From: a bacterium
GTDB taxonomy: Bacteria; Patescibacteriota; Minisyncoccia; JAHIHE01
Length of the DNA: 54,792 nt
Reading direction: 5' to 3'
Assembly: GCA_030693205.1 (NCBI GenBank)
Contig: JAUYBG010000011.1
Coordinates: 1-54,792 of the forward strand
The position numbers and the translations under genes are program-made. Below, piece after piece: positions 1,484 through 30,194 of the stretch. Position 1 is the stretch's first letter. Every line of letters starts with the position of its first letter. Below the pieces are notes generated by a model. It saw nothing but the letters and a program-made list of their open reading frames with translations, was not told where the DNA came from and ran no database searches.

Positions 1484-1519
1484 AGGGGGTCAATTTAAAA
1501 TAATAAAAAATTATTATAA

Positions 1520-7727: not shown

Positions 7728-7757
7728 ATTTTTTTATATTATTAAAAAAATTATTAA

Positions 7758-9045: not shown

Positions 9046-9114
9046 GCTTAAAGTGTTTATTTTAAAAAACCTCGCACTAAACTGTACGAGGATTTTTAAA
9101 TTCATTATTTATAA

Positions 9115-9540
9115 TTATCTTCCCAATATCTTCCAAAGTTTCCGAAAACCTTCCTTGCTGGTATCATATTTTAACAAGCTTAGCGCTTCTTTAAAATCCA
9201 CCCAGCGATATTCGGTATGTTCGGGGCTGAAGACAATTTCAGTGTCCGGCCCCACTTCCACCGCGTAAACATTTTCCACCAGCTCCCCCAAATGCGGCAA
9301 AGAAAAAGAAAAAGAATATTTTAAATTTATAATTTTTTGATACTCGCCGATTCCAGTCTCTTCTTTCAATTCCCTCTTAAGCGCGCTTATTTCGCTCTCC
9401 TTTTCCCGCACTCCGCCGGTCACCGACTGCCAAAACCCTCCCCTATCTTCCCGCCTTTTGAGAACCAAAAATTTATACTCGCCGTTTTCTTTTTTAAACA
9501 CGATGCAATTTATTTGCGAAACGCGATCTTTGGCAAACAT
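9115..9540 (-). CDS. NUDIX hydrolase
   Basis: Nudix box GGVREKESEISALKRELKEETGI (Gx5Ex7REUxEExGU) in a 141-aa ORF. Confidence 0.85.
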   Translation of the reverse strand: MFAKDRVSQINCIVFKKENGEYKFLVLKRREDRGGFWQSVTGGVREKESEISALKRELKEETGIGEYQKIINLKYSFSFSLPHLGELVENVYAVEVGPDTEIVFSPEHTEYRWVDFKEALSLLKYDTSKEGFRKLWKILGR

Positions 9541-9570
9541 ACGATTGGTTTTATTAAAATGCTTTAACCT

Positions 9571-10449
9571 CTATAATATTGCGCCTCTGATCCACTCAAC
9601 CAAATAAGCCCAATAATCCCCCATTGTTTTTGCCAAGCTGCCGCTTTCGTGGCTTTTTTCCGAAACCGCTGGCGGATAATTTTTTTTAGCTTCTTCACCA
9701 TTGGAACTATTATCGCTGTTAATTTCGGTTGGGGTAGGACTTATTTTAATTTCAGGTTCATCTATCTTGTTTAACTCATTCTTACTCTCGTCACTACTGT
9801 CTGTCTTCTTTATTTCCGGACTGGTAAAAATCGCGACTCGCCTGCCCTTGCTTAGATCGGTGGAATTATAATCGCGCATGGCCTTTTCAATGGTCGCATA
9901 AGAATATTGATAATTATGTCCGCGATAAGTGCCGGGCTCCTGCACGATGAACATTTTTTTAGCGTCATCGTAGCCGGAAATCACAAAAACATGATAGTGA
10001 GAAGTCGTAAAATATCGATTGTTCAGCTTTCTTCCGTCTGTCGGCAATATTACAGGATGATCATTGTCTATTTCGTCTTTAATTTGCTCGATCGTCGGAT
10101 TTTCAACGATTCGGGCTTTCCAGTTTAAGAAATTATTTATCAGATCAACGATCTTTTCCGCGCCCTCATCAAGGCTCCGGCCATAGGCTTTTTCTTTTAT
10201 GGCAAAAATCCTTAATATTTCTTTTTTTGCGATCGCGTTCGTCAAAGTTCTGTTATTGTAAAAACTATCAACTATCACGATCGAGGCTTCTTCGCAATCA
10301 TTATACCAAGGCTCGCTCCAGTTGCCTTCCGGCGCCTGGGAAGTAAAACTCATTTTCAAGGACATTCCGGAAGCCAAAAAACCAAATAAAATAAGCGTTA
10401 TCAAACTGACAGCCTGTCTTCCTGTTTTTGATTTTGTGATTATTCGCAT
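9571..10449 (-). CDS. Secreted/anchored C39-like cysteine peptidase-domain protein (putative)
   Basis: N-terminal signal anchor. FTSQAPEGNWSEPWYNDCEEASIVIV and HYHVFVISGYDD resemble the Peptidase_C39_2-type Cys/His pattern. Low-complexity C-terminal tail. Confidence 0.55.
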   Translation of the reverse strand: MRIITKSKTGRQAVSLITLILFGFLASGMSLKMSFTSQAPEGNWSEPWYNDCEEASIVIVDSFYNNRTLTNAIAKKEILRIFAIKEKAYGRSLDEGAEKIVDLINNFLNWKARIVENPTIEQIKDEIDNDHPVILPTDGRKLNNRYFTTSHYHVFVISGYDDAKKMFIVQEPGTYRGHNYQYSYATIEKAMRDYNSTDLSKGRRVAIFTSPEIKKTDSSDESKNELNKIDEPEIKISPTPTEINSDNSSNGEEAKKNYPPAVSEKSHESGSLAKTMGDYWAYLVEWIRGAIL

Positions 10450-10530
10450 GCTAATCTAAAATAAAGATATAATCGCAGTATAACAAAAAAAACAAAAAAA
10501 TTCTAATTTTAAAGCCGGCAAAAACGCCGA

Positions 10531-10555
10531 AATAAAAAACAGGATAAATCCTGTT
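10531..10555 (-). terminator. Rho-independent terminator of the small zinc-ribbon gene
   Basis: Minus strand reads AACAGGAT-TTA-TCCTGTT followed by TTTTTTATTT. Confidence 0.65.
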
Positions 10556-10559
10556 AAAA

Positions 10560-10748
10560 TTAGCCGCCAACGAATATCATCGCTTCAGTTGAAACCTCTT
10601 TTCCGATTTTACGCTCGTGCAGCGTTACGCAACTGCCTTGGCAAAAAGTTTCTCCTTTTTTACTTACACTGATTATTTCGCTCGGCACAAAATTTTTCCC
10701 GCACTGTGTACAATTTGTCTTTGATCCTTTATACTCTTTTCCTTTCAT
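10560..10748 (-). CDS. Small zinc-ribbon protein (CxxC ... CxxxC), hypothetical
   Basis: The ORF track starts at 10754, but GGAGG (10756-10760) lies 7 nt upstream of the ATG at 10748 and only 1 nt from 10754, so 10748 is preferred. Cys pattern CTQCGK...CQGSC. Confidence 0.6.
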   Translation of the reverse strand: MKGKEYKGSKTNCTQCGKNFVPSEIISVSKKGETFCQGSCVTLHERKIGKEVSTEAMIFVGG

Positions 10749-10772
10749 TAACATTCCTCCTTAAGTATAAAA

Positions 10773-10800
10773 ATTATACACTAAATTGCGTAAATGTCAA
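10773..10800 (-). promoter_or_regulatory. Sigma-70-type promoter, TTGACA-16-TATAAT
   Basis: Minus strand reads TTGACATTTACGCAATTTAGTGTATAAT. It is positioned upstream of the Shine-Dalgarno site and ATG of the 10748 gene. Confidence 0.6.
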
Positions 10801-10892
10801 TGCAACGGGTTTATTAAACTTGCTCTAGCAAAAAAACGCCGCTTTGGCGATAAAAAAAATGCCCTGGTTAAGAGCATCCGGCTTTATAGAAT

Positions 10893-11330
10893 TTATAAAT
10901 CTTCCTCCGAAATAACTTTAATTCCGTGTTTCTTAAGCAAAGCGGTTGTTATGCCGTCGCCTTTTACAACTGTACCGGAAAAATATCCGTCATAAATTTG
11001 TCCTGAACCGCAGGAAGGACTTCTTTGCTTGAAAATCGCTTCTTTAATCCCTAGCAACTCGGCGATTTTCAGAACTTCTTCCGCGCCTTTTTTAAAGTGA
11101 GTGGTAGCCTCCATAACTCCACGCTCATCAACTTTCATAAAAACTTTTTTCCCGCGTTGTTCCGAAGGATACCTGGGCGTGGCTAATCCGCCCAATTGTT
11201 CCGGACAAACCGGAATTAAAATTTCTTTTTTCGCCAATTCGATGACTTTCTCGTTGCGGTTATTCTTGCCGTTCCATTTGCAATTTACGCCCAGCAAACA
11301 AGCGCTGCAAAGCCTTACTTTTTTATTCAT
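10893..11330 (-). CDS. DUF523 family protein (2-thiouracil desulfurase-like)
   Basis: CSACLLGVNCKWNGK and PVCPEQLGGLATPR are the family-typical Cys motifs. GGAGG lies 7 nt upstream of the start. Confidence 0.8.
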   Translation of the reverse strand: MNKKVRLCSACLLGVNCKWNGKNNRNEKVIELAKKEILIPVCPEQLGGLATPRYPSEQRGKKVFMKVDERGVMEATTHFKKGAEEVLKIAELLGIKEAIFKQRSPSCGSGQIYDGYFSGTVVKGDGITTALLKKHGIKVISEEDL

Positions 11331-11512
11331 ATTTAAACCTCCTATTATATTATTCAGTTTATAGGATTAAAAAGAAAAAGTAAAGGGTACAAACACTGCA
11401 AGCTCTTGAGTTTTATTTAAAAACCGCTGAAATGGCGATTCCTTATTGACATTTTCACAAAATCTGCTAGAGTAAAAATACTTCATGCTTGAAGCAGGAG
11501 GAATAACATAGA

Positions 11513-11974
11513 ATGGCAATTGATACCGACGCGGCTATCGCGAGAAATAGAGAAAGAGAATTGCGAGAAAATTTGGAAAAAATTTCCAAAAAACTAACAA
11601 AAGGAGGCAATGATTCCACTGAAGCGCTTTACCAATTACAAGAAGTGCTGGATAGATCGGACACATTCGGCCTCGCCGGAAAAATAAATCCAAGACTGGT
11701 TTCTGTAGTGTGGATCTTGAAAAAATTTATCCACGACCTTTGGACAAATATGGGTGGGGATAACCCGGGCTTCCCAAAAGACGAAGGAACGCAGATTCTC
11801 CAGGATATCGCAAGACATCTCGGCGTATTTATCCAAAACTCCCTGTTCAGAAACAGGCCCAGGGATTCTATAGGAACTTTTGAAGATGTAATAAAGTCTT
11901 ATTATGCCTTGCTGCACCTCGCCGAAGAATACTATAAAAAAGAGGATCGCAGAAAAGAATTCGTGGTGCTCTAA
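11513..11974 (+). CDS. Hypothetical protein (153 aa)
   Basis: AGGAGG at 11496-11501. A TTGACA-like -35 lies upstream. No recognisable motif. Confidence 0.6.
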   Translation: MAIDTDAAIARNRERELRENLEKISKKLTKGGNDSTEALYQLQEVLDRSDTFGLAGKINPRLVSVVWILKKFIHDLWTNMGGDNPGFPKDEGTQILQDIARHLGVFIQNSLFRNRPRDSIGTFEDVIKSYYALLHLAEEYYKKEDRRKEFVVL

Positions 11975-12127
11975 TCCGGCAAGGATTTACCCGACAGTGA
12001 AATCGATTATTCACTGTTTTTTTTAATGTATCTAATCTCGTATTTAGTAAATGCTAAAATACTAAAACTTGTATTGACACTGCTTTAATTTTGTTATAAT
12101 ATAATTTTAATTGGAGGTATACAATAA

Positions 12128-12388
12128 ATGCCGGAAAAAAAATCTGATGTGAATAGCGAAGAAAATATCCAAGCTTTGATGAAATGGCTGTATGAGGAAC
12201 AATTGCTTAGAGGTCCAGCGAGACTTGACCTTCTTCCTTCTCTCGCAAAAACCGCCGGGAAAAAAGTGTCATGGCATAGCATAACTGCCGCGGTTGAAAA
12301 TCTAATCAAAAAAGAAAAAGTAAAATTAATGATTTTGGGCGGCGGCGACAACGCATGGGGAATAGGAAAAGTGGAAAAAATTCCTTAA
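12128..12388 (+). CDS. Hypothetical small protein (86 aa)
   Basis: TTGACA 12074-12079, TATAAT 12095-12100, GGAGG 12113-12117, terminator directly downstream. Confidence 0.55.
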   Translation: MPEKKSDVNSEENIQALMKWLYEEQLLRGPARLDLLPSLAKTAGKKVSWHSITAAVENLIKKEKVKLMILGGGDNAWGIGKVEKIP

Positions 12389-12406
12389 ACTTCAATTTCG
12401 TCTTTT

Positions 12407-12438
12407 AGGTTCAGAATAATTACTGAACCTTGTTTTTT
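12407..12438 (+). terminator. Rho-independent terminator
   Basis: AGGTTCAG-AATAATTA-CTGAACCT followed by TGTTTTTT. Confidence 0.7.
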
Positions 12439-12545
12439 ATTATACTTTTTTAATTTACAGCTTAGTTTTGTTAAACCAAAAAAAACCACCATTCGCTTTG
12501 TTTAGCTCATTGGTGGCAAAGTATTCTTAAAATCTTAGCTTTTGC

Positions 12546-12749
12546 TTATATGTGTATGGTAACTTCTTCGTCAGCCAAAATTGCCTGATATGTTCCTTCT
12601 GTTATAAACGCGTTTTTGAGATGATCTTCCAGACTTTCCACATAATAACCATCTCCGTCAGCAGCCGGTCTAAGCCTGATACCAGCGTATGTTTCTCCCT
12701 CTCTGTCGTCTTCTATTTTAATCTTTTTAAATGTTCTAAATTCTCCCAT
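12546..12749 (-). CDS. Hypothetical small acidic protein (67 aa)
   Basis: GGAGG (12758-12762) lies 8 nt upstream. A hairpin plus T8 sits downstream on the minus strand (about 12484-12520). Confidence 0.55.
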   Translation of the reverse strand: MGEFRTFKKIKIEDDREGETYAGIRLRPAADGDGYYVESLEDHLKNAFITEGTYQAILADEEVTIHI

Positions 12750-12821
12750 TGCATAAACCTCCTTAGAATACAGTAAATGTATAACAAATTAAGTAAATGT
12801 CAAGACCGTTAAAATAATTTC

Positions 12822-14363
12822 TTATTTATTCGCTTTTTTTCTCTTCATGATCCTGAAAAATCCGTATACATCAAGAAGCAAAGCGGCGCCGAAGATCGAA
12901 GTGAATTTCCAATAATTTTTTTCCGATTCATTAAGGTCTTTGATCGGCCGATCGGTGATGCTTTTGGCGCGGATGGAAGACAAATTGACCGAATTGGAAA
13001 CCGAATCGATAAGATTCATAAAAAATGTTTTATTGTCGGGAGCATTTCCCATAAAATCAGGCAAGACGAAAAACGAGCCTCCCGCCACAAAAACCGAACC
13101 GCTTTTTGAATCTTTTTCTTTCGGAGCCGCAAAAGCGACGATGGTTTTTTTCGCTCCTTTTGGAGCAGGCAGAGCGGCATCGGGCAATAAAGTAAAAGTG
13201 CCGGAAACAGAATCGGATTGATCGCTTGAAGTGACCAGGGCTTTGGGAGAGTAATCCGCGCTATCCGCGAGCGTCAAAGAAGACACCCATGGGAATATTA
13301 TCGCTTGAAGGCCCGCGAGCGAAGCGCTGTCGCCAAAATTCTCTTTTTGCGCCCGGACGAAAAAAGGATATGGCTTGCTCACGGTGAAAAAACCCTGGCT
13401 GTAAGTAATACTGGAATTATACCGGTCATGGATCAGGTCTTCATTGATCGTCACGCCATAATTTTTGGTCAACTCGTTTATATTATTTTTGATTGGCGTG
13501 ACGGTTAAATTATTTTTTGTATCAACGTTTATGGCTTCCGCCAAAACGATCAAATTCCCGCCGTTTTTCACGTAATCATTTATCACCGCGATCTCGTCTT
13601 TGGTTATTTCCGCCGCCGGTCCGGCAATGATCAGAGTCTTCGGACTGACAAAGACTTGCTCGGATTTTTCGCCTTCCTTGGCCGGCGCTTTTTCATAATA
13701 AAATCCTTTTTTGCTCCCCGCGCTCATTATTTTTACGGAAGAAACGTTATAATACTTCTCCAGTCCCGCGATCGCGACCTGCTTTTCTCCGTGTCCCGAA
13801 AGAAACGCCAGGTTTTCTTTGCTTTCCCGCGAAACGGAATAAACGGCTAAAATAAAATCATATTCAATATTGGCAACCGACTGGATCAGAGGAATGGCTT
13901 CTTTGTTCACTTTATCCCCTTCGCCGGCAGTGATCTCCGCGCCAAAAAATCCCTGTTTCACTTCATATTTATCCTTCGCGATCACGTTGAATTGCATTTG
14001 GGGAATTCCTTTTTGAGCCAGTTCCGTAACTTTTTCCTGATTATTCTCGGGAGCTTCATAGGAGATCGCGAGCTTTGCGCCCGCAATATCCTGATACTGA
14101 TTCATTATATCTTCCAATTGTGTTTTTACATTTGCCAGATCAACCGGCAGATCTTTGGAAATATAGAATTTCACGCTCACGTCTTTCGTGAGATTTTTCA
14201 AAATATTTTTCGTCGCCTCCGACGTCGTATAGATTTTTTCCCGGGTCAGATCCAGATAAATATATTTTTGCGCCACTAAAATATTTACGCCGATCAAAAG
14301 CGCCAGCAAGAGCAGCACCGAGCTTAACGATTGATCAAATATATTTTTGTTTATTAATTTCAT
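12822..14363 (-). CDS. GldG-like ABC-transporter auxiliary protein (ABC_transp_aux)
   Basis: 513 aa with N- and C-terminal TM helices and a large external domain. It is the last gene of an ATPase-permease-auxiliary operon, the gldA/F/G-type arrangement. Confidence 0.7.
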   Translation of the reverse strand: MKLINKNIFDQSLSSVLLLLALLIGVNILVAQKYIYLDLTREKIYTTSEATKNILKNLTKDVSVKFYISKDLPVDLANVKTQLEDIMNQYQDIAGAKLAISYEAPENNQEKVTELAQKGIPQMQFNVIAKDKYEVKQGFFGAEITAGEGDKVNKEAIPLIQSVANIEYDFILAVYSVSRESKENLAFLSGHGEKQVAIAGLEKYYNVSSVKIMSAGSKKGFYYEKAPAKEGEKSEQVFVSPKTLIIAGPAAEITKDEIAVINDYVKNGGNLIVLAEAINVDTKNNLTVTPIKNNINELTKNYGVTINEDLIHDRYNSSITYSQGFFTVSKPYPFFVRAQKENFGDSASLAGLQAIIFPWVSSLTLADSADYSPKALVTSSDQSDSVSGTFTLLPDAALPAPKGAKKTIVAFAAPKEKDSKSGSVFVAGGSFFVLPDFMGNAPDNKTFFMNLIDSVSNSVNLSSIRAKSITDRPIKDLNESEKNYWKFTSIFGAALLLDVYGFFRIMKRKKANK

Positions 14364-14494
14364 AGATTTAGGGCTTGTGCGTTTGAATGCAGATTGAGAA
14401 AAAACCGAGGCTTTGTACGAAACTTACTTAATGGTAAGTTGAGCGCAAAACACAGATTTTGACAAAAATATGCGCCAAACGCATAAGTCCTGGA

Positions 14495-15211
14495 TTATTT
14501 CCAATTTCTTAAGCTAATTACCCTGGCATTCAGGAATAAAAAGAAAGCGATGACCGATAAATAATAAACCACGTCCCCGAGAGAGATCACGCCGCGCAAA
14601 ATTGAATTGAAATGCGCGCTAAAACTTAAAAACTTTGCCACGCTCGCGATCGCAATCGGCAGCGAACCGATTATAAAAGAATTGCCGACGATGTAAAATC
14701 CGAAAATGATCACCACGGCAAGGATGAAAGACACGATCTGATTCTTGGTTATGGAAGAAACCCAAAGCCCCACCGCGATATAAGAAGCCCCGAGCAAAAG
14801 CGAGCCGATATAACCGGCAAAGATCACTCCCTTGTCCGGCGTTCCCAAGCTAGAAACCATCATTGGGATCGCTACTGTCAACAAAACCATTACCGCGAGA
14901 AAAATAAAGCTTGAAACAAATTTAGCCAGAACCAACTCGGAACTTTTTACCGGAAAAGTGGTCAGCACTTCGATCGTACCGCTTCGCTTTTCCTCGGACC
15001 ACGCCGCCATTGTCGAGGCCGGCAAGAAAAACATAAAAATAACCGGCAACAGGTCAAAAAATTCCCTCATCGAGGCCTGCGCGCTAAGAAAAAAAGTCTG
15101 AATAAAAAGCCATCCGCTGATAACCAAAAATACCGAGATCACCACATAACCCAGAGGCGATATGAAATAAGAATTCAGCTCTTTTTTTACCAAAGTAAGA
15201 ACCCTGCTCAT
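14495..15211 (-). CDS. ABC-2 type transporter permease (GldF-like)
   Basis: 238 aa with six hydrophobic segments. Its start overlaps the ATPase stop in TAATG (15209-15213). Confidence 0.8.
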   Translation of the reverse strand: MSRVLTLVKKELNSYFISPLGYVVISVFLVISGWLFIQTFFLSAQASMREFFDLLPVIFMFFLPASTMAAWSEEKRSGTIEVLTTFPVKSSELVLAKFVSSFIFLAVMVLLTVAIPMMVSSLGTPDKGVIFAGYIGSLLLGASYIAVGLWVSSITKNQIVSFILAVVIIFGFYIVGNSFIIGSLPIAIASVAKFLSFSAHFNSILRGVISLGDVVYYLSVIAFFLFLNARVISLRNWK

Positions 15212-16131
15212 TAATTTTTGGTTAGATTGATAAACACATCTTCGAGATCCGTTTGTTTGCGCACGAAATCCAAAAGGCCGGCTCCTTCCCCGACTACCAG
15301 GCTCGCAACATCTTTCCTGATATCATTTTCCACGCTTGTCTCAACAACTATTTTATTTCCTTCGGACTTTACTTTTTTAACCCCGTTGAGAGATTTAAGC
15401 TTGGCAATGAGTTCAGGGGTTATTTTTTCCACTTCAATATTAATGATCGTTTTTCCTTTTTCCTCTTTTATCAGATCTTCCGGCGTGCCATCAGCCACAA
15501 TGCGCCCTTTATTGATGATCAAAACCCTGGAGCAAGTCGCCTGAACCTCGCTCAACACATGGCTCGAAAGTATTACGGTTTTTGACTTGCCTATTTCTTT
15601 GATCAGATCCCTGATCTCGATCCTTTGATTGGGATCAAGTCCCGTAGTCGGCTCGTCCAGGATCACGATTTTCGGATCGTGGATCAAGGCCTGGGCGATC
15701 CCCGTGCGCTGGCGATAGCCTTTGGAAAGAGTGGAAATCTCGGAATTTTTCTTTTCCTTGAGCCCGCATTTTTTTAATACATACAAGATCCTTTCATCCA
15801 GATCGTTCTCCGGAATGCCCTGCATCTTGCCGACGAATTCCAAATATTCCCTTACGGTCAAATCCTCATAGAGTGGAGCGTGTTCGGGAAGATACCCGAT
15901 CTTGCTTTTGATATTCTCGTGATTGGTGAAATCGCTTATATCCAAGCCATCGATCAAAACCTCTCCGTCATCCGCTTTAAGAAAAGTGACTAAAATCCTC
16001 AAAAGAGTGGTCTTGCCCGCGCCGTTCGGCCCGAGAATTCCGACAACTTCGCCTTCTTTCATTTCAAAAGAAACGCCATTGAGCGCCGCCACTTCCCCGT
16101 ATTTTTTGACCAAGCTTTCTACTTTTATCAT
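15211..16131 (-). CDS. ABC transporter ATP-binding protein (GldA-like)
   Basis: Walker A GPNGAGKTT, signature LSKGYRQR, Walker B ILDEPTTGLD. Confidence 0.92.
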   Translation of the reverse strand: MIKVESLVKKYGEVAALNGVSFEMKEGEVVGILGPNGAGKTTLLRILVTFLKADDGEVLIDGLDISDFTNHENIKSKIGYLPEHAPLYEDLTVREYLEFVGKMQGIPENDLDERILYVLKKCGLKEKKNSEISTLSKGYRQRTGIAQALIHDPKIVILDEPTTGLDPNQRIEIRDLIKEIGKSKTVILSSHVLSEVQATCSRVLIINKGRIVADGTPEDLIKEEKGKTIINIEVEKITPELIAKLKSLNGVKKVKSEGNKIVVETSVENDIRKDVASLVVGEGAGLLDFVRKQTDLEDVFINLTKN

Positions 16132-16327
16132 AATTATCGAAAAAGAAAAACCGCGTTTATTAAATTCGTTAATATAATAAACTACGATTTGTAGTTACTG
16201 TATCAATTTTATAACAGGTTTTTATTTTGGTCAAGAGATACGGCGCCAACGATCATAATTTGGCCAAAAAAAATACGGGTCTTAACTGTTCAGCAGTCAA
16301 TTCCCGCAATATGATATGGGTAAATTA

Positions 16328-17215
16328 TTACCCCAATTTCAAGATTCTTCCTCCCGGAAAAATACTTCTTATCGCGTTTTCCAGCGTTCCCCCCCGACAC
16401 GCCGCAGGTCCTCTGTTTGATAGTTGTGCCTTATTTTCTATTAAAGTATCCGGATTAAATGGTTCCGCGTAAACCTCTCCGTCAAAACAAATTACCCCCG
16501 CGCCATCCGCTACCGGACTTTCGTCTATCGCTTTTTTTAAAGTGATCAGGAAATCAAGTTGCGGTTTTGCAGCTTCGTCAACTATTGTAAAAATCCCGCG
16601 CGCCAAAAGGTCGCAAAGCAGCTTAACGGCTTCTTCGTTTTTAGGGTTGATATCCCCGAAAAGCACAGTCGTATTAAGCGCTTCTTCGACAAATTCTTCC
16701 GGACTGAAAACAATTTTTGCCTCGGAAATTCCGTGCAAAAAATGCATTACATTATCGGGAATTTCATCCGATAATCCTTCCGGGATAAATATATTTTTTA
16801 TTCTTGGCCTTATGGTCAACCTGTCTTCCTCCTGCTGAATTCCGTACGAGTTAAGAAACCCCGTAATCATGTAATAGTTTTTTTCGCCAAAAACAATGCT
16901 TACCTCTTTTTCTCCGGGATAAACAGTTTCATTTATCAGGCTTTCCCAGGCCGCAAGCACTCTTTTTATGTCTTTACATTTTTTGATCCCGACAATCTTT
17001 CTTACTCTGCCGGTGTCTGCAATGAGCCTCGTAAGACTAGATTGATGACTGTAGTACTGCCGCACCGCAGTCGTTTGCCGGTTTATTATTCCTAAAATTA
17101 TTTCTCGGGCATTGTCCACACTGCTTACCCTTTTAATAATTTCAAATTCCCATTTACTGATCAATCCGTTCGCCAGCATTTTTTCTATTATATCGTAGCT
17201 TTCTCTGTCAAACAT
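16328..17215 (-). CDS. Hypothetical protein (295 aa from the preferred start)
   Basis: The ORF track starts at 17248. GGAGG (17223-17227) lies 7 nt upstream of the ATG at 17215 (MFDRESY...). A TTGACA-17-TATATT promoter lies upstream. No recognisable motif. Confidence 0.6.
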   Translation of the reverse strand: MFDRESYDIIEKMLANGLISKWEFEIIKRVSSVDNAREIILGIINRQTTAVRQYYSHQSSLTRLIADTGRVRKIVGIKKCKDIKRVLAAWESLINETVYPGEKEVSIVFGEKNYYMITGFLNSYGIQQEEDRLTIRPRIKNIFIPEGLSDEIPDNVMHFLHGISEAKIVFSPEEFVEEALNTTVLFGDINPKNEEAVKLLCDLLARGIFTIVDEAAKPQLDFLITLKKAIDESPVADGAGVICFDGEVYAEPFNPDTLIENKAQLSNRGPAACRGGTLENAIRSIFPGGRILKLG

Positions 17216-17347
17216 TTTCTTTCCTCCTTTTTTTGTTCTTTTCTCCATTAATCCGACTTTTCATAGGTTTTTAGGGTACAACTCCTCAAAATCAGATATT
17301 TTAATATATCAGATATACAGACTATTGTCAATTATAATCTATGGTAA

Positions 17348-17575
17348 AAATATGATGACGTTTCCGGTCAGTGGACTACATTTTACAAAGTTGATCTTGT
17401 CACCACGGGCGGGCGCGAGGAAGGATATAAAACTTATTCCTTTATAAAAAATATCGCGCTCGGCGAATGGCGCGTGAATGTGGAGACCGCTGATCACAAG
17501 GTCATCGGCCGCTTGCGTTTTAACGTGATCCGAGTAGATTCCGAACCGGCCTTAAAAAGTGAGGTTTTGGACTAA
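17348..17575 (+). pseudogene. Start-less 3' fragment (76 codons) of a DUF2914-like gene, copy 1
   Basis: An open frame from just after an in-frame TAA to a TAA stop reads ...GQWTTFYKVDLVTTGGREEGYKTYSFIKNIALGEWRVNVETADHKVIGRLRFNVIRVDSEPALKSEVLD*. It has no start codon. The GxWRVxV...F.V pattern resembles DUF2914. Confidence 0.6.
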
Positions 17576-17808
17576 ATGAAATGTTTTTGACATTTCAAGC
17601 AAAAAAAATCCGAAGTCTTGAAAAACTCCGGTCGTTTTTAATATTTTGACTTAATTTGATTTGACTCGATTTATTCTTTATTTTTTATTTCCTCCTGTTT
17701 TTTTAATTCTATGATTTAATATTTTGTTCCGATAGTAATAATTGTTTATTGTTCTTGTTAAATAATGTGTTTTATGGTAGTATTTTAATATAAAAAAATA
17801 AACATATT

Positions 17809-18420
17809 ATGATTAATGATAAAATAGTATCTACAAAAGTAATTTTAGGTATAATGGTTTTGGTTGCCCTAGGTGTAATAACATATTATTTTATTATGCT
17901 TAAAAAAAACCCGCCGATAGCGGTAAAACCTACTCCCAGTACTGCAATAGTACCATCAATAAGTCCGGCATTGACCCCAACACCGAGTATTGATATTTCC
18001 GAGTGGAAGACTTATACAAATGAAAAATATGGGTTTGAAATAAAATACCCGGAAGATACGACAGTTGCTGAAAATTTTAACATGGGGATTATAAAAAATC
18101 CTTTTGGTGTAAGTTTTTTAAAACAAAACCAGACTGATACTGATATATTTTATTCTTTGTATATAATTGATAAAAATCAGCCTCGAGAAATGCAAAATTT
18201 TTTTGACAATTCAGAAGTTTATAAAAAAAATGATGAAGTTAAAACAATTACTATAGATAATATGGAATGGAAAAGTTATGATTATACGGGCGGAGAAGGC
18301 GGTCCGGAACCGTTACATTTTATTTTAAATACCGATAATTTAATATTTGAGATTATTTCATCCGACGATTCATATTCAAATGTTATCAAAACCCTTTCCA
18401 CATTTAGACTCTCAAAGTAA
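17809..18420 (+). CDS. Membrane-anchored secreted hypothetical protein
   Basis: N-terminal TM helix, Pro/Thr/Ser linker, then WKTYTNEKYGFEIKYPED. That motif recurs in the 23235-23978 product. Confidence 0.65.
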   Translation: MINDKIVSTKVILGIMVLVALGVITYYFIMLKKNPPIAVKPTPSTAIVPSISPALTPTPSIDISEWKTYTNEKYGFEIKYPEDTTVAENFNMGIIKNPFGVSFLKQNQTDTDIFYSLYIIDKNQPREMQNFFDNSEVYKKNDEVKTITIDNMEWKSYDYTGGEGGPEPLHFILNTDNLIFEIISSDDSYSNVIKTLSTFRLSK

Positions 18421-18557
18421 TGGTGGACTTTAAAATGATAAAAATTCCCTGCCAAGTTTTTGACAGGGATTTATTTTTGTATTTTAGAGATTTTACTGTT
18501 TTTAGCTTATAGAATATCCTCCTGCTTCCTATAGGGCATTATTGATTTGTTTTTCCT

Positions 18558-20345
18558 TTAATTGTATTCGTAGTTTAATTTCATCGGATCTATGAAATAT
18601 TCCTCCGAAAATATAGGATCTGTTTTGCAATGATTGCCTGGTTCTTTATACAGATTATTTTTGGGAAGAGCTCCTCTTTGGGCATATTTACTGTATCCGC
18701 TATTCCTAACTCCAAAGTGGAGATGATCCGAACCATCAATATCCGCTATTGTTGCAATTTTATCTTTTTTGGCTACTTTGGCTTTTTCCTTTACGAGAGC
18801 ATTGACATGTATATAGGTCGTCGTAAATTTACTGTTGTCGGGAGCGGTATGCTCAATTACAATACCTTCGGCCCATCCGAGTCCGGCATTATAAACTACT
18901 TTAACAACGCCATCATAGGAAACAAGGACATCATCGCCGAGCTTCGCGTTTAAGTCTACGCCTGTATGACTTTTCCAATCTGAACCGCATTTTGAATCTT
19001 TTAAACCTTTTTTACTTTCAACTATCCAATCATCACCAAACGCAAAACCGTTAACATATGACTTCTCTTTAAGTGGCCATTGCAAGACTGGTATTAATGC
19101 CGCTGGCATATAAATCACGAAGTCAGCTGCTAAGATATCGTTTCCTCCAAACTCTTGCCATGGACCTTTGTTTCCATTTACATCTACTGCTCTTGCTCGC
19201 CAGTGGTAATCAGCATCTATCAAGTCATTTACTGTGATAGCAACTTCACTCCCGCTTGGAACAAGAATACTTTCTTTTATTCCCGATTGGGTTTCATCGA
19301 ATTGCCCTCCGTATTCATCCAGCCGTCTCAGTTCTATTTGCAGCTTCACTTGATCTTTGTCTGAATCACTTATTGCACCTTTAAATACAACGGTTCTTAC
19401 GTTTGTCGTATAACCTGTAGTTATTACAGTGGTTCCGTCGGATTTGAATTGGCTTAATTCGGATGGTTTGTCAGGAGTTGATTCAATGGTAATTTTCTGG
19501 CTTGCTTTATTGTTATCCTCTTTGGATTCATCGATTAGATTATCCGGATCAATTTTTACATATATATTATGTATACCAACTTCTCCGGCTGTGTCCCACG
19601 CAATGGATTTAACTACATTTTCCTCTTTATTGATTCCGTGTATCACCGACGAAAGTATGAGCTCGCTGCCAGTGTCAGGATTACCATCGTAAAAATCCAA
19701 AGTTACATCGGAACTTACAGAACTGCCGAAATTACGAATGCTCGCCTGAATTTCTATAATATCTCCTTCGGTAGGATTATTATTGCTGAAAGTAATATCT
19801 CCCGGCATAATAATAAAATCCGGCTTTGACGGATTTGAAGGAATAAGATAGAGATTGCCGGTTACTAAAGCCGTAATATCATTATAATCGCGATCTCCGC
19901 CATTCCACATATCTTCAAATCCCATTCTCAATGTTTGGGAATTTATGTCGGTAATGGCCGCATGCACCGTATTATCAGGATTTCTTGATGCTGGTCCGCT
20001 TAAGAAAGTGCCGTCCGGACTTTTTATGAAGAAAACCAGCTCAGTGTACTTCGAGAATGTCCCAATATCAATCTTTGTTCCTGGAATTGTTGAATGCCCC
20101 CAGAATAATTCTCGATAAGCTGGGTCATACAAGCCGAACAAATTATTATATCCGGCGTCTGATCCTTCAAAAGTTACCGCGATATTACTGTCTTCCGAGA
20201 GCACGATTGCTTTTGCTTCGGGATACAATGCTGCTTGAGCGGAAAAGCTTGTGGCAATCAGAATTAATATCGCTAATCCTGCAAATTTTATGATTTCTTC
20301 CGCTGTTGTTGATTTTACAGTTTGTTCAAATCTTTTTCTTGTCAT
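18558..20345 (-). CDS. Secreted M23 (LytM-type) metallopeptidase with DUF4114-like and CARDB-like domains
   Basis: GFEDMWNGGDRDYNDI (DUF4114-like), ITFSNNNPTEGDIIEIQASIRNFG (CARDB-like), HTGVDL ... HLHFGV (M23 HxxxD / HxH). Confidence 0.8.
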   Translation of the reverse strand: MTRKRFEQTVKSTTAEEIIKFAGLAILILIATSFSAQAALYPEAKAIVLSEDSNIAVTFEGSDAGYNNLFGLYDPAYRELFWGHSTIPGTKIDIGTFSKYTELVFFIKSPDGTFLSGPASRNPDNTVHAAITDINSQTLRMGFEDMWNGGDRDYNDITALVTGNLYLIPSNPSKPDFIIMPGDITFSNNNPTEGDIIEIQASIRNFGSSVSSDVTLDFYDGNPDTGSELILSSVIHGINKEENVVKSIAWDTAGEVGIHNIYVKIDPDNLIDESKEDNNKASQKITIESTPDKPSELSQFKSDGTTVITTGYTTNVRTVVFKGAISDSDKDQVKLQIELRRLDEYGGQFDETQSGIKESILVPSGSEVAITVNDLIDADYHWRARAVDVNGNKGPWQEFGGNDILAADFVIYMPAALIPVLQWPLKEKSYVNGFAFGDDWIVESKKGLKDSKCGSDWKSHTGVDLNAKLGDDVLVSYDGVVKVVYNAGLGWAEGIVIEHTAPDNSKFTTTYIHVNALVKEKAKVAKKDKIATIADIDGSDHLHFGVRNSGYSKYAQRGALPKNNLYKEPGNHCKTDPIFSEEYFIDPMKLNYEYN

Positions 20346-20551
20346 TAATTATCACTTTGTCCTTATTTTATCTTTTATTCCCGTGTCGATACGAAAGAAA
20401 CCTATTAGATTCCCCATTTTTTGATTTTTAATTGTAATGTGCATTACGCTCCCTTTTATCACTTTTTATTTAAGTGAACCTATGTAGATTAGTGCATCTT
20501 TGCTAATTTGTCAACGATAACATGAAAATTAAATATCTCATTGGAATATAA

Positions 20552-20680
20552 AAAAATATCGCCCCCGGCGAATGGCGCGTAAACGTGGAAACATCCGACC
20601 ACAAACTCATCGGCCGTTTGCGTTTTAATGTGATCCAAGCGAATACCGAACCGGCCTTAAAAACTGAGGTTTTGGATTAA
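20552..20680 (+). pseudogene. 3' fragment (42 codons) of a DUF2914-like gene, copy 2
   Basis: KNIAPGEWRVNVETSDHKLIGRLRFNVIQANTEPALKTEVLD*, in frame directly after a TAA. Hand alignment to copy 1 gives about 20 mismatches in 129 nt, and about half are synonymous third-position changes. Confidence 0.6.
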
Positions 20681-20745
20681 ACATATTCGCCAAGGCAATA
20701 AAAAAAACAAAAAAAGCCGCATGTTTATATTATGCGGTTTAAAAA

Positions 20746-21216
20746 CTAAAGGTTTAAAATTGCTTCGTGGATTTTTTTAGCTAATTCTCTATAATAAACG
20801 CCGACTTGATCAAGCTTGGTAAAAAAACACGGCAAATAGATTAAAGTCGTTCCATTACCTCTAAGCATCGCGTTTATACCGAGTTCCTTTTCCAGCTCAG
20901 TTCGAAAATCTGTACGATAAATGATAGCTTTACCGATAGATGTAATAGCCATTCCATATTCAACGCAAGTACCGCTATCGGAATCAGGTCCGTCAGCATT
21001 ACCGACAAAAATATTTTGAGGGCTTGAACAAGCAATCCTGCAACTTTCAGCTATAGCTTTGGTATTGAAGCTTTTTCCATCAAACGCTTTAAGCGCCTCT
21101 CTTTGAGGGAGTATTACTTCGTAACCCAATACTTTCAAATATTTTTCAAGGAGCAACTGGTGAAGTCGTTCTCCGGCGTTAAAAAGCCCTCCGGCCAGAT
21201 ATATTTTTCTTTTCAT
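20746..21216 (-). CDS. Nucleoside 2-deoxyribosyltransferase-like protein
   Basis: KIYLAGGLFNAGE at the N-terminus and PDSDSGTCVEYGMA match the family pattern. GGAGG lies 6 nt upstream. Confidence 0.7.
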   Translation of the reverse strand: MKRKIYLAGGLFNAGERLHQLLLEKYLKVLGYEVILPQREALKAFDGKSFNTKAIAESCRIACSSPQNIFVGNADGPDSDSGTCVEYGMAITSIGKAIIYRTDFRTELEKELGINAMLRGNGTTLIYLPCFFTKLDQVGVYYRELAKKIHEAILNL

Positions 21217-21312
21217 TATTTTCCTCCTGTTCTTTTCGATTTCTATTTTGAAACAACAGAACTACGTATAGTATAAATAGATATTGCTTTTTGTCAAACT
21301 TGGCCTTATTAA

Positions 21313-21414
21313 ATTCTCGGCCGCTTGCGTTTTAACGTGATCCGGGTAGATTCCGAACCACGTACCATTCGATACGTGGCAATGCCGGTTTTAAAAACTG
21401 AGGTTTTGGATTAA
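21313..21414 (+). pseudogene. 3' fragment (33 codons) of a DUF2914-like gene, copy 3, with a 27-nt in-frame palindromic insertion
   Basis: ILGRLRFNVIRVDSEP[RTIRYVAMP]VLKTEVLD*. The 5' part resembles copy 1 and the 3' tail resembles copy 2. Confidence 0.55.
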
Positions 21415-21518
21415 AGAAAAGTGCATATTAAAAGCAAGCCAATTCGTTTTTGAGTGCATTTGGTGAAACCCATGCAATCAAAAATAATTGGCGAGTTTTA
21501 CTGATCAAAATATCTTTT

Positions 21519-23234: not shown

Positions 23235-23978
23235 CTAATAAGTATTAAGATGAAAAGAAGAAATAATAATATCAAATACTGGTTTGTTGCCGAATTGTCG
23301 ATTTTTACCATCCACACGAAGATAATTATCCGTGCTAAATTTAATAACATGATCATTCTTTAAAATAACAACTTTATAATTTTCCATCAGAGTAATGCCC
23401 GAACTGGAAGTAGATTTTGAAAAAACAACCCTTCCTCCGTAAGCGTCAAGTCCGCTGATTTTAAAATAAGTAAAATTGTTTTTAACGAGAGATGAGTATA
23501 CTTCTTGAAGTTCTTTGTTATAAAAAGAATCCGGGGACGTATAATCCGTTGAAAGTTCTTTATAAAATGCTTCTTCGGCTGTTTTGTAATTTTCAGTATT
23601 TTTTTTAACTGTAATATGTGTTGATGGGTTATCTCGTGTATCGCAAGTATCAGGTATGCCATTATAACCCGTGCGGATGTTTAGATTTAATTCTGCTTTT
23701 ATAACATCTTGAGATTTTAAGGTATCGTCGCATACATTCACATATTCCGGATACTTAAAACTAAAACCAAATTTATCATTTCGATATTCTTTCCAATTAA
23801 AAGTCACCAAATTTTGTAGATTTTCTACGTTTTCATTTTGGTTGATTTGCTCTTGTTTTAAATCTGAAATATCTTTTTTAATACCTAAATTTTGCTTGCT
23901 TAAATTAGAATACAAAAAGATATTACTAATAAGAAAGACAATAATTACAGAAACTAAAAAATAATTTATTTTATTCAT
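23235..23978 (-). CDS. Membrane-anchored secreted hypothetical protein
   Basis: N-terminal TM helix, coiled region, then WKEYRNDKFGFSFKYPEY, which is paralogous to the motif in the 17809-18420 product. Confidence 0.65.
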   Translation of the reverse strand: MNKINYFLVSVIIVFLISNIFLYSNLSKQNLGIKKDISDLKQEQINQNENVENLQNLVTFNWKEYRNDKFGFSFKYPEYVNVCDDTLKSQDVIKAELNLNIRTGYNGIPDTCDTRDNPSTHITVKKNTENYKTAEEAFYKELSTDYTSPDSFYNKELQEVYSSLVKNNFTYFKISGLDAYGGRVVFSKSTSSSGITLMENYKVVILKNDHVIKFSTDNYLRVDGKNRQFGNKPVFDIIISSFHLNTY

Positions 23979-27555: not shown

Positions 27556-27960
27556 TTAATTTGATAAAAAATAGATAATCTTTTTTATAACCAAATTTAG
27601 ATCTTTTTCAATCTCATGCTCCCAAACTCTCAAAACTTTCCAGCCTTCCCTTTTTAGTTTTGCCCTGTTTTTCTTGTCGCGCTTAATATTATTTTCAATT
27701 TTTGCTTGCCAGTATTTTTTTGGAAGCCTTTTTCTTGTTTTTGCAAATCGCCAGCCGTGCCAAAAATCACCATCAACAAATACTGCTTTTTTCTTTTTTG
27801 GCAACGCTATATCCGGGTGGCCAATCGCTTTTGAATAATATCTCTGAAAATAAATTTTTCTTTTTCTGAGCTCCCTGAAAATTATTTTTTCAATCCCCGT
27901 ATTCTTAGAACGGATTTTAGACATTACCTCGCTTCTCTTTTTCTTAGTAAAAGTGTCCAT
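27556..27960 (-). CDS. vsr: Very short patch repair endonuclease
   Basis: MSKIRSKNTGIEKIIFRELRKRKIYFQRY, HPDIALPKKKKAVFVDGDFWHGW, WKVLRVWEHE. Confidence 0.9.
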   Translation of the reverse strand: MDTFTKKKRSEVMSKIRSKNTGIEKIIFRELRKRKIYFQRYYSKAIGHPDIALPKKKKAVFVDGDFWHGWRFAKTRKRLPKKYWQAKIENNIKRDKKNRAKLKREGWKVLRVWEHEIEKDLNLVIKKIIYFLSN

Positions 27961-28052: not shown

Positions 28053-29630
28053 ATGCAAACTCTAACAAAAAAACAAAAACAAGTCTTTGATTTCATTAGC
28101 GCCTATCAAACAGAAAATGGAATTTCTCCTACAATAGAAGAAATAAGAAAAAAGTTAAAGCTCAAAGCAGTATCAACGATACATGAACATATAAATACGC
28201 TGAAAGAAAAAGGCTATCTTTCGAAAAATGATAATTCTGCTCGGGGTATAACTTTAAGAAAAGAGGAAAGAATAATTATTAATATTCCAATAATCGGGAA
28301 AATAGCTGCAGGAAAACCAATTGAAGCTATTGAAGATTTTCAAGAAAATATATCTGTATTGAATCCAGCTATCAAAAATCCGAAAAATTACTACGCTCTT
28401 CGCGTAGTTGGCGATAGCATGATTAACGAAGGAATTTTCAATGGCGATACTGTGATAATTAAAAAACAATCTTCTGCAGAAAATGGCCAAACTGTCGTTG
28501 CTATTATAGATAACAACGAAGCAACGCTTAAAAAACTTTACAGAGAACGGAACAGGTTCCGTCTTGAGCCTAGAAACCCAAACATGCTACCCCTTTATAG
28601 AACTGAGGTCGAAGTAAGAGGCGTTGTCGTTCAGGTAATAAACAATGTTTCCGGCGAACCAGAAAAGAAAACTGTAAAAAAAACTCGGCATGGATTCAAA
28701 ACGCTAGATCTTTTTGCTGGGGTCGGCGGAATACGCCTAGGTTTTGAAAAAGCTGGATTCAATACTGTTTTTGCGAATGACTTCGATGAACAATGCAAGA
28801 TTACTTATGATTTAAACTTTCTAACATCAAAACTTGTAGTCGAAGATATAAGAAAAATTGGAATTAATGATTTGCCAAAATTCGATTTTCTGTTAGGCGG
28901 TTTCCCTTGCCAGCCTTTTTCTATTGCAGGATATAGACAAGGATTTAACGATAAAAAAAATAGAGGAAATCTGTTTTTTGATATCGTAAAAATCATAGAA
29001 GCGAGGAGGCCTGAAGGTTTCTTGCTTGAAAATGTAAAAAATCTAAAGAGCCACGACGGCGGAAATACCTTCAAAACTATTGAAAAAATACTGAAAAACT
29101 TGGGCTACTATGTAAAAGCAAGGGTGCTGAATAGCATGGAATACGGCAATATCCCTCAAAATCGAGAAAGAGTTTACATTGTAGGGTTCAAAAATAAAGA
29201 TTATACTGATAATTTTTTATTTCCAGATCCAATCAAACTAACAAAAAAGATTACTGATTTGTTAGAAAAAAGTGTTCCGGAAAAATACTACTACAACGGC
29301 AAGCCGCTATTCGCGAAACTAAAGGATTATATAAAAGAATATGGAAAAGTTTACCAATGGCGCAGACAATATGTACGAGAAAATAAAAGCGGGGTTTGCC
29401 CAACACTAACCGCAAATATGGGTACGGGGGGGCATAATGTTCCAATTATAAAAGACAAAAAAGGCATTCGAAAGCTAACTCCTCTTGAATGCGCGCGCAT
29501 TCAAGGTTTTCCTAAAAATTATAAATTACCGCAGATTGCCGACTCTGCATTATATAAACAATTTGGAAATTCAGTAAGCGTTCCGGTTATTGAAGCTGTG
29601 GCAAAACAGATGATGAGTGCCATGATGTAA
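28053..29630 (+). CDS. Fusion protein: full-length LexA (wHTH + S24 autoprotease) joined to a DNA (cytosine-5) methyltransferase
   Basis: LexA part: IAAGKP (Ala86-Gly87), VVGDSM (Ser122), ATLKKL (Lys160). MTase part: LFAGVGG (I), GFPCQPFS (IV), ENVKNL (VI), QNRERVYIVG (VIII), GNSVSVPV (X). It is a single 525-codon ORF without interruption. Confidence 0.9.
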   Translation: MQTLTKKQKQVFDFISAYQTENGISPTIEEIRKKLKLKAVSTIHEHINTLKEKGYLSKNDNSARGITLRKEERIIINIPIIGKIAAGKPIEAIEDFQENISVLNPAIKNPKNYYALRVVGDSMINEGIFNGDTVIIKKQSSAENGQTVVAIIDNNEATLKKLYRERNRFRLEPRNPNMLPLYRTEVEVRGVVVQVINNVSGEPEKKTVKKTRHGFKTLDLFAGVGGIRLGFEKAGFNTVFANDFDEQCKITYDLNFLTSKLVVEDIRKIGINDLPKFDFLLGGFPCQPFSIAGYRQGFNDKKNRGNLFFDIVKIIEARRPEGFLLENVKNLKSHDGGNTFKTIEKILKNLGYYVKARVLNSMEYGNIPQNRERVYIVGFKNKDYTDNFLFPDPIKLTKKITDLLEKSVPEKYYYNGKPLFAKLKDYIKEYGKVYQWRRQYVRENKSGVCPTLTANMGTGGHNVPIIKDKKGIRKLTPLECARIQGFPKNYKLPQIADSALYKQFGNSVSVPVIEAVAKQMMSAMM

Positions 29631-30194
29631 CTACCAAATTTTAATGTTTTTTCCTATTGGCTTAATTCTATAAGGTTTAATTATATCATTGATTATACTA
29701 AACCTTGGCCGTCTTTTTTCTTTTTGCTGAAGTTCCATTGTTTGCCCGTGATTTACCTTATTTTTATAGATTAATTTGTTGGGAATTTCATATACGTCAA
29801 AAGTTCCATCCAATTTCTCTTTTTTATAAAAACTCATAAAATAAAGCTTATCCCATTCGCTTTTTGGACCAAAAGAAGTTAAGTCTGCCTCTATACTGCT
29901 AGCCTTAATCTGCTCTCTCTCGCCTGTTTCTAAATTAATCGTATCAAATGAAACAGAGCCCTTGCCTTTCAATTTTCTTTGAAATCTCACAGAATTAGAA
30001 AATACACAGAACATCCCCTCAGACAAAACCTCGGGAATATTAACTTTTCTGCCATATTTACCAAGCCCATCATTCAGCTTAACCCAAATATCAAAAAGTT
30101 TTTTAAAAGTTTTTGCATCTACCTTGCTAAAGCGCGCAACCTCTACTTCAATTTCACCTTCTTTTGTTTTAATTATACATTTATTCAGTTTCAT
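29631..30194 (-). CDS. Candidate type II restriction endonuclease (cognate of the methyltransferase; possibly Bsp6I-like)
   Basis: 187 aa, convergent, and abutting the MTase stop with zero spacer. VSFD...GEREQIKASS gives a possible PD-(D/E)xK-like core. The family assignment is from memory and context only. Confidence 0.45.
   Translation of the reverse strand: MKLNKCIIKTKEGEIEVEVARFSKVDAKTFKKLFDIWVKLNDGLGKYGRKVNIPEVLSEGMFCVFSNSVRFQRKLKGKGSVSFDTINLETGEREQIKASSIEADLTSFGPKSEWDKLYFMSFYKKEKLDGTFDVYEIPNKLIYKNKVNHGQTMELQQKEKRRPRFSIINDIIKPYRIKPIGKNIKIW

Follow-up and report, generated by a model that had tools for sequence, protein, structure and literature searches.

Several described systems stack mobile DNA at the 3′ ends of genes. 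The element e14 at icd of E. coli supplies the gene with a new 3′ end and leaves a displaced C-terminal pseudogene, icdC (PMC13626634), ICEs (integrative conjugative elements) and IMEs (integrative mobilizable elements) integrate at the 3′ ends of protein genes, accrete, and decay into cis-mobilizable elements (CIMEs) (PMC5704250), and tycheposon islands contain stacked partial tRNAs (bioRxiv 10.1101/2020.12.28.424599). Here we describe a 4073-nt block on contig JAUYBG010000011.1 (assembly GCA_030693205.1) of a bacterium of the Candidate Phyla Radiation (CPR) type, in which three start-less 3′ ends of a DUF2914 membrane-protein gene bracket two small cargo units. The whole 54,792-nt stretch that was analysed is referred to as the window, and its numbering is used throughout. 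We favor, with a probability of roughly 55%, the reading that the block is a decayed, integrase-less tandem accretion array, CIME-like and comparable to e14 icd/icdC, that was built at the 3′ end of a DUF2914 gene and is now off-target and truncated. On this reading, DUF2914 is a previously unreported target for accretion at the 3′ end of a protein gene, here in a CPR-type genome.

The block shares features with each of these systems and differs from each. In e14 and phage 21 at icd, the element lies in the 3′ part of a protein gene and supplies the working tail, with mostly synonymous or conservative differences, and the displaced tail, now without a start, is retained at the element's far end (PMC13626634). 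However, e14 is a single 15-kb element with its own integrase and is attached to an intact icd, whereas here there are two tiny units and three tails, neither an integrase nor an intact target was found in the window, and the locus was ancestrally without the gene. CIMEs, ICEs and IMEs (ICESt1 and ICESt3 at fda, and IMEs at guaA, trmE and rpsI) resemble the block in their successive integration into a gene-end repeat (PMC5704250). Their att identity segments span 8-60 bp, their arrays are attached to the target, and trans mobilisation by a resident ICE integrase was shown experimentally, whereas here the repeats measure 98-228 nt, a cognate integrase is not known, and the array is found in hosts of the CPR type. 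The tycheposon islands of Prochlorococcus likewise occur in streamlined genomes, with cargo stacked between partial target 3′ ends and orphan copies after decay (bioRxiv 10.1101/2020.12.28.424599), and the ssrA-linked islands of Dehalococcoides (PMC3146451) show repeated integration at one site and partial copies of the target gene's 3′ end. These islands target tRNA or tmRNA genes and many of their elements keep tyrosine or other recombinases, whereas the target here would be a protein-coding tail under codon-level constraint. To our knowledge, elements of the CIME, ICE or IME type have barely been described in CPR-type bacteria.

Three start-less tails of a DUF2914 gene

The C-terminus of a DUF2914 protein is present as three copies, all on the + strand and all ending at a common stop codon. 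Copy 1 (17348-17575) consists of the final 75 codons and the stop, without a start codon or 5′ part, copy 2 (20552-20680) of the final 42 codons and the stop, and copy 3 (21317-21414) is a mosaic tail fragment. The original prediction, made from the sequence of the window, had started copy 3 at 21313; the homology begins instead at ~21317. The lengths of homology are nested (228, 131 and 98 nt), each reaching the stop, and the homology among the three copies ceases at the TAA plus one A. A 25-nt core (GGCCGYTTGCGTTTTAAYGTGATCC) occurs three times in the window, where none is expected (100 shuffles, none), and the same holds for a 24-nt tail ending in the stop codon (three occurrences, 0 expected from shuffles). 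The predicted arrangement of three tails that share one stop and bracket two cargos was thereby confirmed: each module is flanked by direct repeats from the target-gene 3′ end, giving three nested repeats around two modules. In-frame TAA codons can be read directly upstream of each open stretch, as had also been noted; they are composed of AT-rich junction bases and are probably incidental.

The DUF2914 assignment, likewise proposed earlier, was borne out by a Pfam match of copy 1 (17348-17572) to PF11141 (E=5.8e-10; bit score 39.2, cut-off 23.6) that spans profile positions 22-62 of 62. Full-length DUF2914 relatives are multi-pass membrane proteins of 365-384 aa, and copy 1 aligns with their last 75 residues; copy 1 thus shows the significant profile match at the C-terminus of a ~350-385-aa multi-pass membrane protein that marks family membership. 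Among the 150 best of 500 hits, copy 1 aligns at the C-terminus of most of the long (~330-400-aa) proteins, and many of the shorter hits are apparently fragments. The nearest relatives in genome and metagenome collections, among them metagenome-assembled genomes (MAGs) of Liptonbacteria and Giovannonibacteria, have 57-60% identity to copy 1, which makes a CPR bacterium of the Parcubacteria type the probable host. No further DUF2914 piece, neither an intact gene nor a 5′ part, was found in the window by tblastn.

Scans with degenerate peptides for the DUF2914 tail recovered only relatives of ≤60% identity (37 loci), none of them in viral contigs, and when the viral, genome and metagenome collections were scanned for exact matches to the repeat core, nothing was found. 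An exhaustive HMMER search with copy 1 gave no representative above 51% identity. A word-indexed protein search with copy 1 gave no candidates, which is uninformative, since relatives sharing many 5-residue words exist.

The window was compared with an independent Logan assembly of its own sample (L041, SRR13727537), which is 100% identical over window 6539-21484. The array and both of its junctions are therefore not assembly artefacts of the window contig.

Divergence of the tails under coding constraint

Copies 1 and 2 are 85% identical over 131 nt (17446-17576 against 20551-20681). Over the 42 shared codons there are 20 differences, 12 synonymous and 8 non-synonymous, in line with the original estimate of about 20 differences of which about half would be synonymous. 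The proportions of synonymous and non-synonymous sites that differ (pS and pN) are 0.42 and 0.08, with a ratio of non-synonymous to synonymous divergence (dN/dS) of 0.14 (Fisher p=6e-5). In simulations with 20 random substitutions, only ~1 in 10,000 of the sets that stayed free of stops had so few non-synonymous changes (p=1e-4). The open frame is itself uninformative, as no stop was created in 51% of random 20-substitution sets. A model in which one of the copies evolved neutrally predicts ~13 non-synonymous to 7 synonymous changes, compared with the 8 to 12 observed (binomial p roughly 0.03, a hand estimate from site counts).

Given the dN/dS of 0.14 (p ~1e-4), copies 1 and 2 are former working 3′ ends and not the product of in-place decay; the proposal that they were once-functional alleles and not a recent in-situ duplication therefore held. 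Mostly synonymous or conservative divergence with the frame kept, the pattern by which an element-borne tail of the e14/icd type is recognized as a functional allele, is found in these copies.

The same figures bear on a local segmental duplication, by which a DUF2914 gene and its downstream genes would have been duplicated in place, with deletions or replacements leaving three tails. Although this could in principle produce same-orientation direct repeats around unrelated DNA, it is very unlikely. The copies diverged in a coding-like manner, neutral evolution of both is rejected (p=1e-4) and that of a single copy is disfavoured (the hand estimate above). Cargos A and B are mutually unrelated, cargo A occurs elsewhere as a free-standing unit (in L043, described below), and the ancestral locus was without DUF2914.

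Mosaic tails and exchange of repeats independent of cargo

Copy 3 combines a head of 43 nt that is 98% identical to copy 1 and 84% to copy 2 with a tail that has both diagnostic bases of copy 2, so that its predicted mosaic nature, with a copy-1-like head and a copy-2-like tail, was recovered. Precisely at the switch between head and tail lies an in-frame insertion of 26-27 nt (21359-21384, CACGTACCATTCGATACGTGGCAATG), which forms a 7-bp hairpin (CCACGTA...TACGTGG) and was found once in the window and in no other fetched locus. The insertion may be filler DNA from a recombination junction. Copy 3 has further changes as well (CCGGTTTT for CCGGCCTT).

A second array fragment was found on contig L042, from sample SRR22387754. 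L042 carries cargo A at 92% nucleotide identity with both flanking repeats, a copy-1-like tail (...QVDTEPALKSEVLN and the stop) on one side and a copy-2-like head with the left border of the window on the other, and the contig ends inside both repeats. Its left repeat is mosaic too, with copy-1-type and copy-2-type bases mixed within 45 nt.

Between the window and L042, pS is 0.18 for the hydrolase gene of cargo A and 0.08 for its 203-aa gene, and pS of the 306-aa gene that neighbors the block is 0.21 between the window and a further relative, L039. In contrast, pS is 0.75 in the first 48 nt of copy 2 between the window and L042, where 8 of ~10.7 synonymous sites differ and a single non-synonymous change is found. 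From this excess over the cargo (0.08-0.18) and from the mosaics, it follows that the repeats were exchanged with other constrained DUF2914 alleles. The exchange could have occurred through independent integration of the same cargo or through gene conversion from an expressed gene.

Gene conversion in the opposite direction was also considered, with the tails kept, as in the pilS/pilE system, as a silent store of donors for the C-terminus of a DUF2914 surface protein that is expressed from another locus. The open frames, the mosaic alleles and the mainly synonymous or conservative differences, even between strains (8 to 1 in the copy-2 head), would suit such a role, as would the persistence of the fragments in a streamlined genome where other junk was trimmed to ~10 nt. 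We nevertheless regard it as quite unlikely. The cassettes number only three and differ at few amino acids (8 of 42), donor cassettes would not be expected to be truncated in a nested way or to bracket the cargo exactly, copy 3 contains a hairpin insertion of 9 codons, there is no known expression locus, and 20 random substitutions leave a frame open half the time.

The empty site in relatives

The window was compared with two relatives, L039 (from the same sample as L042) and L040 (from SRR22388352), which carry homologues of the adjoining 306-aa protein with 83% and 50% identity, respectively. L039 aligns to window 17351..16007 and then, 34 nt on, to window 21484..21425. The whole 4073-nt block (17352-21424: copy 1, cargo A, copy 2, cargo B and copy 3) is replaced there by ~35 unrelated nt (taaattatatgatagaataaattaatcttagaatat), and no DUF2914 similarity is left at this empty site. 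At the nucleotide level, the window and L039 are ~88% identical, and the outgroup L040 is 70% identical to both.

L040 has the first ~22 nt of the filler at the L039 empty site. Because the outgroup shares the filler with L039, the empty state is by parsimony ancestral and the block of the window is an insertion. For the same reason, with L039 free of DUF2914 and L040 sharing the empty-site filler, this locus did not hold DUF2914 as a resident target, and the earlier view that the array sits at its own target gene had to be abandoned. The related contigs also did not show the expected presence or absence of single cargos at the repeat borders, as L039 is without the entire block including copy 1.

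The left edge of copy 1 coincides with an indel border against L039, and a TATGAT microhomology is visible between the left junction of copy 1 and the empty-site sequence. The edge is therefore an illegitimate junction and not an att border. An apparent extension of the DUF2914 homology upstream of 17348 (IV..W*KYD) was rejected, because the relatives without DUF2914 have the same sequence upstream. The right edge of the block lies 0-13 nt past the third stop (~10 nt past the stop of copy 3).

In sample SRR22387754, the only homologue of the 306-aa gene that was found is located at the empty site. The array fragment of L042 is therefore probably elsewhere in the genome of that strain, an inference of moderate strength.

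The 306-aa gene itself (16328-17248, - strand) is conserved next to the empty site in both L039 and L040, and is therefore resident and lies outside the array. Its product gave no informative domain match (SHOCT_2 alone, below threshold), and the candidates that it encodes a recombinase or is the end of a third element were dropped for these reasons. Among 5.8 billion proteins, only three clusters of homologues were found, and the protein evolves fast, with an amino-acid identity of 83% at a DNA identity of 88%.

A spot at which two independent Logan assemblies break was noticed just beyond the block. L041 and a second contig of the same sample, L001, overlap by only 23 nt at window 21462-21484, and L039 also ends at 21484. 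It falls within a nested hairpin (GCCAATT...AATTGGC) that follows downstream of the rluB-like gene, and the breaks may be due to a variant in the population or to a branch of the assembly graph beside the array.

Organization of the block and its cargo units

All cargo and flanking genes but one, the 203-aa gene, are on the - strand, and every repeat sits inside a spacer of the order terminator, repeat, promoter. The best two sigma-70-like matches in 16.1-22.4 kb both adjoin a repeat, immediately to the left of copies 1 and 3, on the - strand. One is the promoter of the 306-aa gene (17331..17303, TTGACA-17-TATATT), which abuts copy 1, and the other is that of cargo B (21268-21297; TTGACA, 16 nt, TATACT at 21297..21270; 11/12 matches), which abuts copy 3. 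The promoter and 5′ leader of the hydrolase gene (20346-20550, - strand) contain a TTGACA (20514..20509) in the same position relative to gene and repeat as in the other two promoters. The block now lies between the promoter of the 306-aa gene and the terminator of the rluB-like gene.

Cargo A extends from 17576 to 20551. Its first gene (17809-18420, + strand) encodes a 203-aa membrane-anchored protein with a weak PsbP-like match and an orthologue on L042; it has the motif WK.Y.N.K.GF..KYPE in common with the product of a resident gene at 23235-23978. The second gene (18558-20345, - strand) encodes a 595-aa secreted wall hydrolase with DUF4114, CARDB and M23 peptidase domains, and its own terminator was found at 18446-18469 (- strand) by a terminator scan. 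Cargo B extends from 20681 to 21316, 636 nt in total. It contains a single gene (20746-21216, - strand) for a 156-aa nucleoside 2-deoxyribosyltransferase-like protein (PF05014 at E=3.8e-9, with PHROGs matches too), followed by a hairpin terminator at ~20716-20738. Exact look-ups of the rluB-like and cargo B proteins gave matches only in the window's own sample, SRR13727537.

The limits of cargo A were revealed by contig L043 from a MAG (NCBI GCA_017973895.1), which has the hydrolase unit from promoter to terminator without repeats and without any DUF2914 sequence on either side. L043 is 81% identical to window 20541..19492 (promoter, leader and N-terminal module) at the nucleotide level, and shares with window 17585-17700 a terminator and the last hydrolase codons; the C-terminal enzyme domain differs and is a GH25 in L043. 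The homology as a whole spans window 20541 to 17586, ending ~10 nt or less from each repeat (10 nt from copy 2). This comparison indicates that cargo A begins and ends, within 10 nt of the repeats, where a free-standing transcription unit does, and that the interior was remodelled later by a swap of the C-terminal domain and insertion of the 203-aa gene. The conclusion that both cargos are complete promoter-gene-terminator units, bounded within ~10 nt by the repeats, is supported.

The segment at 17585-17700 (- strand) is thus the relic of an older hydrolase 3′ end and terminator, including an orphan terminator at 17610-17631. It aligned locally to sequence downstream of the hydrolase gene on L043 with a score of 59 (shuffle maximum 39), and blastn matched L043 4759-4800 to window 17625..17586; the segment is absent from L042. 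A ribosome-binding-site-like motif at 17683-17700 was considered as the start of a lost gene, and is better explained as the last codons and 3′ untranslated region of the older hydrolase gene.

Homologues of the hydrolase (window 18558-20345; P0005-P0009 in L043, L045 and L046) keep the N-terminal DUF4114-CARDB module at 53-90% identity, and their C-terminal enzyme domain is swapped among an M23 peptidase, a GH25 lysozyme and a C39-like peptidase. Two such genes lie in tandem on L045. No DUF2914 flanks were found at the homologues on L045 and L046.

Small gene units between repeats of 100-130 nt form an array-like layout that would also be expected of structured sites merely resembling a gene. 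Such sites could be attC-like sites, the template/variable pair (TR/VR) of a diversity-generating retroelement (DGR), or an RNA element. Clusters of attC sites lacking integron-integrases (CALINs) in particular hold small gene units between ~100-nt repeats with no recombinase nearby. However, attC sites fold as single strands with conserved R/L boxes and CALIN cassettes are mostly promoterless and co-oriented, and neither holds here. Folding of the repeats as single strands was no better than that of shuffles on both strands (z -1.6 to +1.4), no IntI was found in the screened ORFs, and the units have their own strong promoters and mixed orientation. The substitutions have a mixed spectrum (e.g., T>C 5, G>A 5, G>C 3 and C>T 3) that is not adenine-specific, and no reverse transcriptase domain was detected by Pfam in the screened ORFs of the window, both of which argue against a DGR. 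No Rfam family was found in or near the repeats, which argues against an RNA element. The DUF2914 Pfam match and the codon-position pattern point to a coding origin, and structured sites of any of these kinds are extremely unlikely.

Proposed serial accretion at a gene end and its alternatives

The anatomy of the block, with nested tails, coding-type divergence, tail-bounded cargos and mosaic tails, fits serial 3′-end integration with tail replacement. In such a process, small circular cargo units would have recombined serially into the 3′ end of the DUF2914 membrane-protein gene, each bringing its own gene tail from the crossover region through the stop codon. Integration would fuse the incoming tail to the gene, which would stay intact, and displace the prior tail downstream as a start-less fragment. 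Two such events would give the order tail, cargo A, tail, cargo B, tail, with nested fragments that all end at the stop. Cargo B would have arrived first and cargo A second, which would make copy 3 the oldest displaced tail, consistent with its being the only copy with an indel and with its extra changes. The tails downstream of each crossover would be under selection, as they become the working end of the gene. The array may have reached its present locus by illegitimate or one-sided homologous insertion of a piece of a donor array. Alternatively, the gene and its array may have been inserted together, followed by deletion of the first ~290 codons of the gene. As to the enzyme, a tyrosine-type integrase that acted in trans or has since been lost is favored, with RecA-driven Campbell recombination nearly as likely.

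Several results weigh against this reading. The main ORFs of at least 110 aa across the window and the 75-aa fragment were screened against Pfam, PHROGs and NCBIfam, and no integrase, resolvase or transposase, or relic of one in the block, was found among them; with the negative tblastn result, this agrees with the original statement that the window has no integrase and no intact 5′ part of the target. An intact DUF2914 gene is not in the window and the array is unattached to its target gene. The empty site of L039 retains no DUF2914 repeat, so the classic excised state with a single repeat left was not observed, and polymorphism was seen only as absence of the whole block (L039), not of a single cargo. 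The repeats, at 98-228 nt and 85% identity, are above the 8-60 bp typical for att identity segments (PMC5704250), and the left borders of the units are unequal (131 and 98 nt before the stop). Searches of the viral, genome and metagenome collections gave no closer relatives. A second 3′-end copy was found at none of the 37 other DUF2914 loci, at the protein or nucleotide level, and a general DUF2914 hot spot is therefore unsupported.

In addition, phage and plasmid BLAST of the block gave no match, with none in viral contigs either, and the sole tRNA gene in the window is distant, at 37653.

The long repeats, variable left borders, mosaics, allele swapping and lack of room for arm sites fit RecA-mediated Campbell recombination about as well. 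The earlier proposal of serial site-specific integration at a 3′ end thus stood in part: the nested tails, the bounded cargos and the flanks on L042 agree with it, and its site-specific component is unproven, with RecA fitting the mosaics at least as well.

This leads to a possible, if more tentative, alternative, that of integrase-free cassette shuffling, in which the tails act as portable homology. Circles of one tail and one cargo would pop out by RecA and re-enter any DUF2914 3′ end by Campbell crossover, in the same cell or after DNA uptake. No recombinase was found among the screened ORFs of the 54.8 kb, repeats of 98-131 nt suffice for RecA, the left borders of the units vary, and both copy 3 and the left repeat of L042 are mosaic. 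The copy-2 head was allele-swapped between strains with a cargo pS of only 0.08-0.18, and the modules are too tight for arm-type integrase sites (636 nt in total for cargo B). However, the formation of the first tail-plus-cargo circle is unexplained, the 85% identity of copies 1 and 2 would lower RecA recombination, neither a circle nor a deletion junction was observed, and the off-target position is explained no better than by an integrase.

A broader form of this idea appears doubtful, namely that CPR-type bacteria have a cassette system without an integrase in which the tails still work, with the 3′ end of a protein gene as a docking sequence that is portable and under codon constraint. If true, single units would be captured from ordinary chromosomal loci, as suggested by the repeat-free L043, then stacked, allele-swapped and carried to new sites. 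Recombination with expressed alleles would rewrite the tails again and again, and the tails might in turn be a source of variation for the DUF2914 protein.

Little is known about mobile elements and the ways in which genes are gained in organisms of the CPR (Patescibacteria) type, whose tiny genomes rely on accessory functions such as wall hydrolases, involved in host-cell contact, and nucleoside salvage. The cargo here, a wall hydrolase and a nucleoside-salvage-like gene, represents the very functions on which these genomes depend. The locus is a concrete, strain-polymorphic case of single transcription units being added, with DUF2914 tails suggested as a possible docking site. If confirmed in complete genomes, the repeat-free cargo and the swapped repeats would provide a rare view of cassette capture and recycling without a resident integrase. 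If the block is only the decayed island that we favor, it would be an ordinary remnant that known processes have left in an unusual host.

Other features of the window

A 525-aa ORF at 28053-29630 (+ strand) encodes a LexA DNA-binding domain and an S24 peptidase fused to a C-5 cytosine DNA methyltransferase. On either side lie genes on the - strand (27556-27960 and 29631-30194) for a Vsr mismatch endonuclease and a Bsp6I-like restriction enzyme. The locus could be a restriction-modification system whose methylase is possibly SOS-cleavable or self-repressing.

The first kilobase of the window (1-1000) has a G+C content of 52.5%, compared with ~40% elsewhere. Beside it, an ORF at 1570-1938 (- strand) encodes a '23S rRNA intervening sequence protein' (PF05635), and no rRNA was detected by Rfam in window 1-2100.

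Two dispersed elements are shared between the window and L043. A conserved intergenic element of ~110 nt (window 14375-14486 and L043 8893-9004, 80% identity) lies inside an ABC-transporter operon in the window and between nusG and rplK in L043; it has no Rfam match and may be a leader or small RNA of a new type. The other is a palindromic repeat of ~100 nt, of the type GTCATTGCGAG...CTCGCAATGAC, at window 3610-3711 and at L043 9566-9669 and 10559-10661, with 83-86% identity. This repeat may be an element similar to miniature inverted-repeat transposable elements (MITEs) or repetitive extragenic palindromic (REP) sequences.

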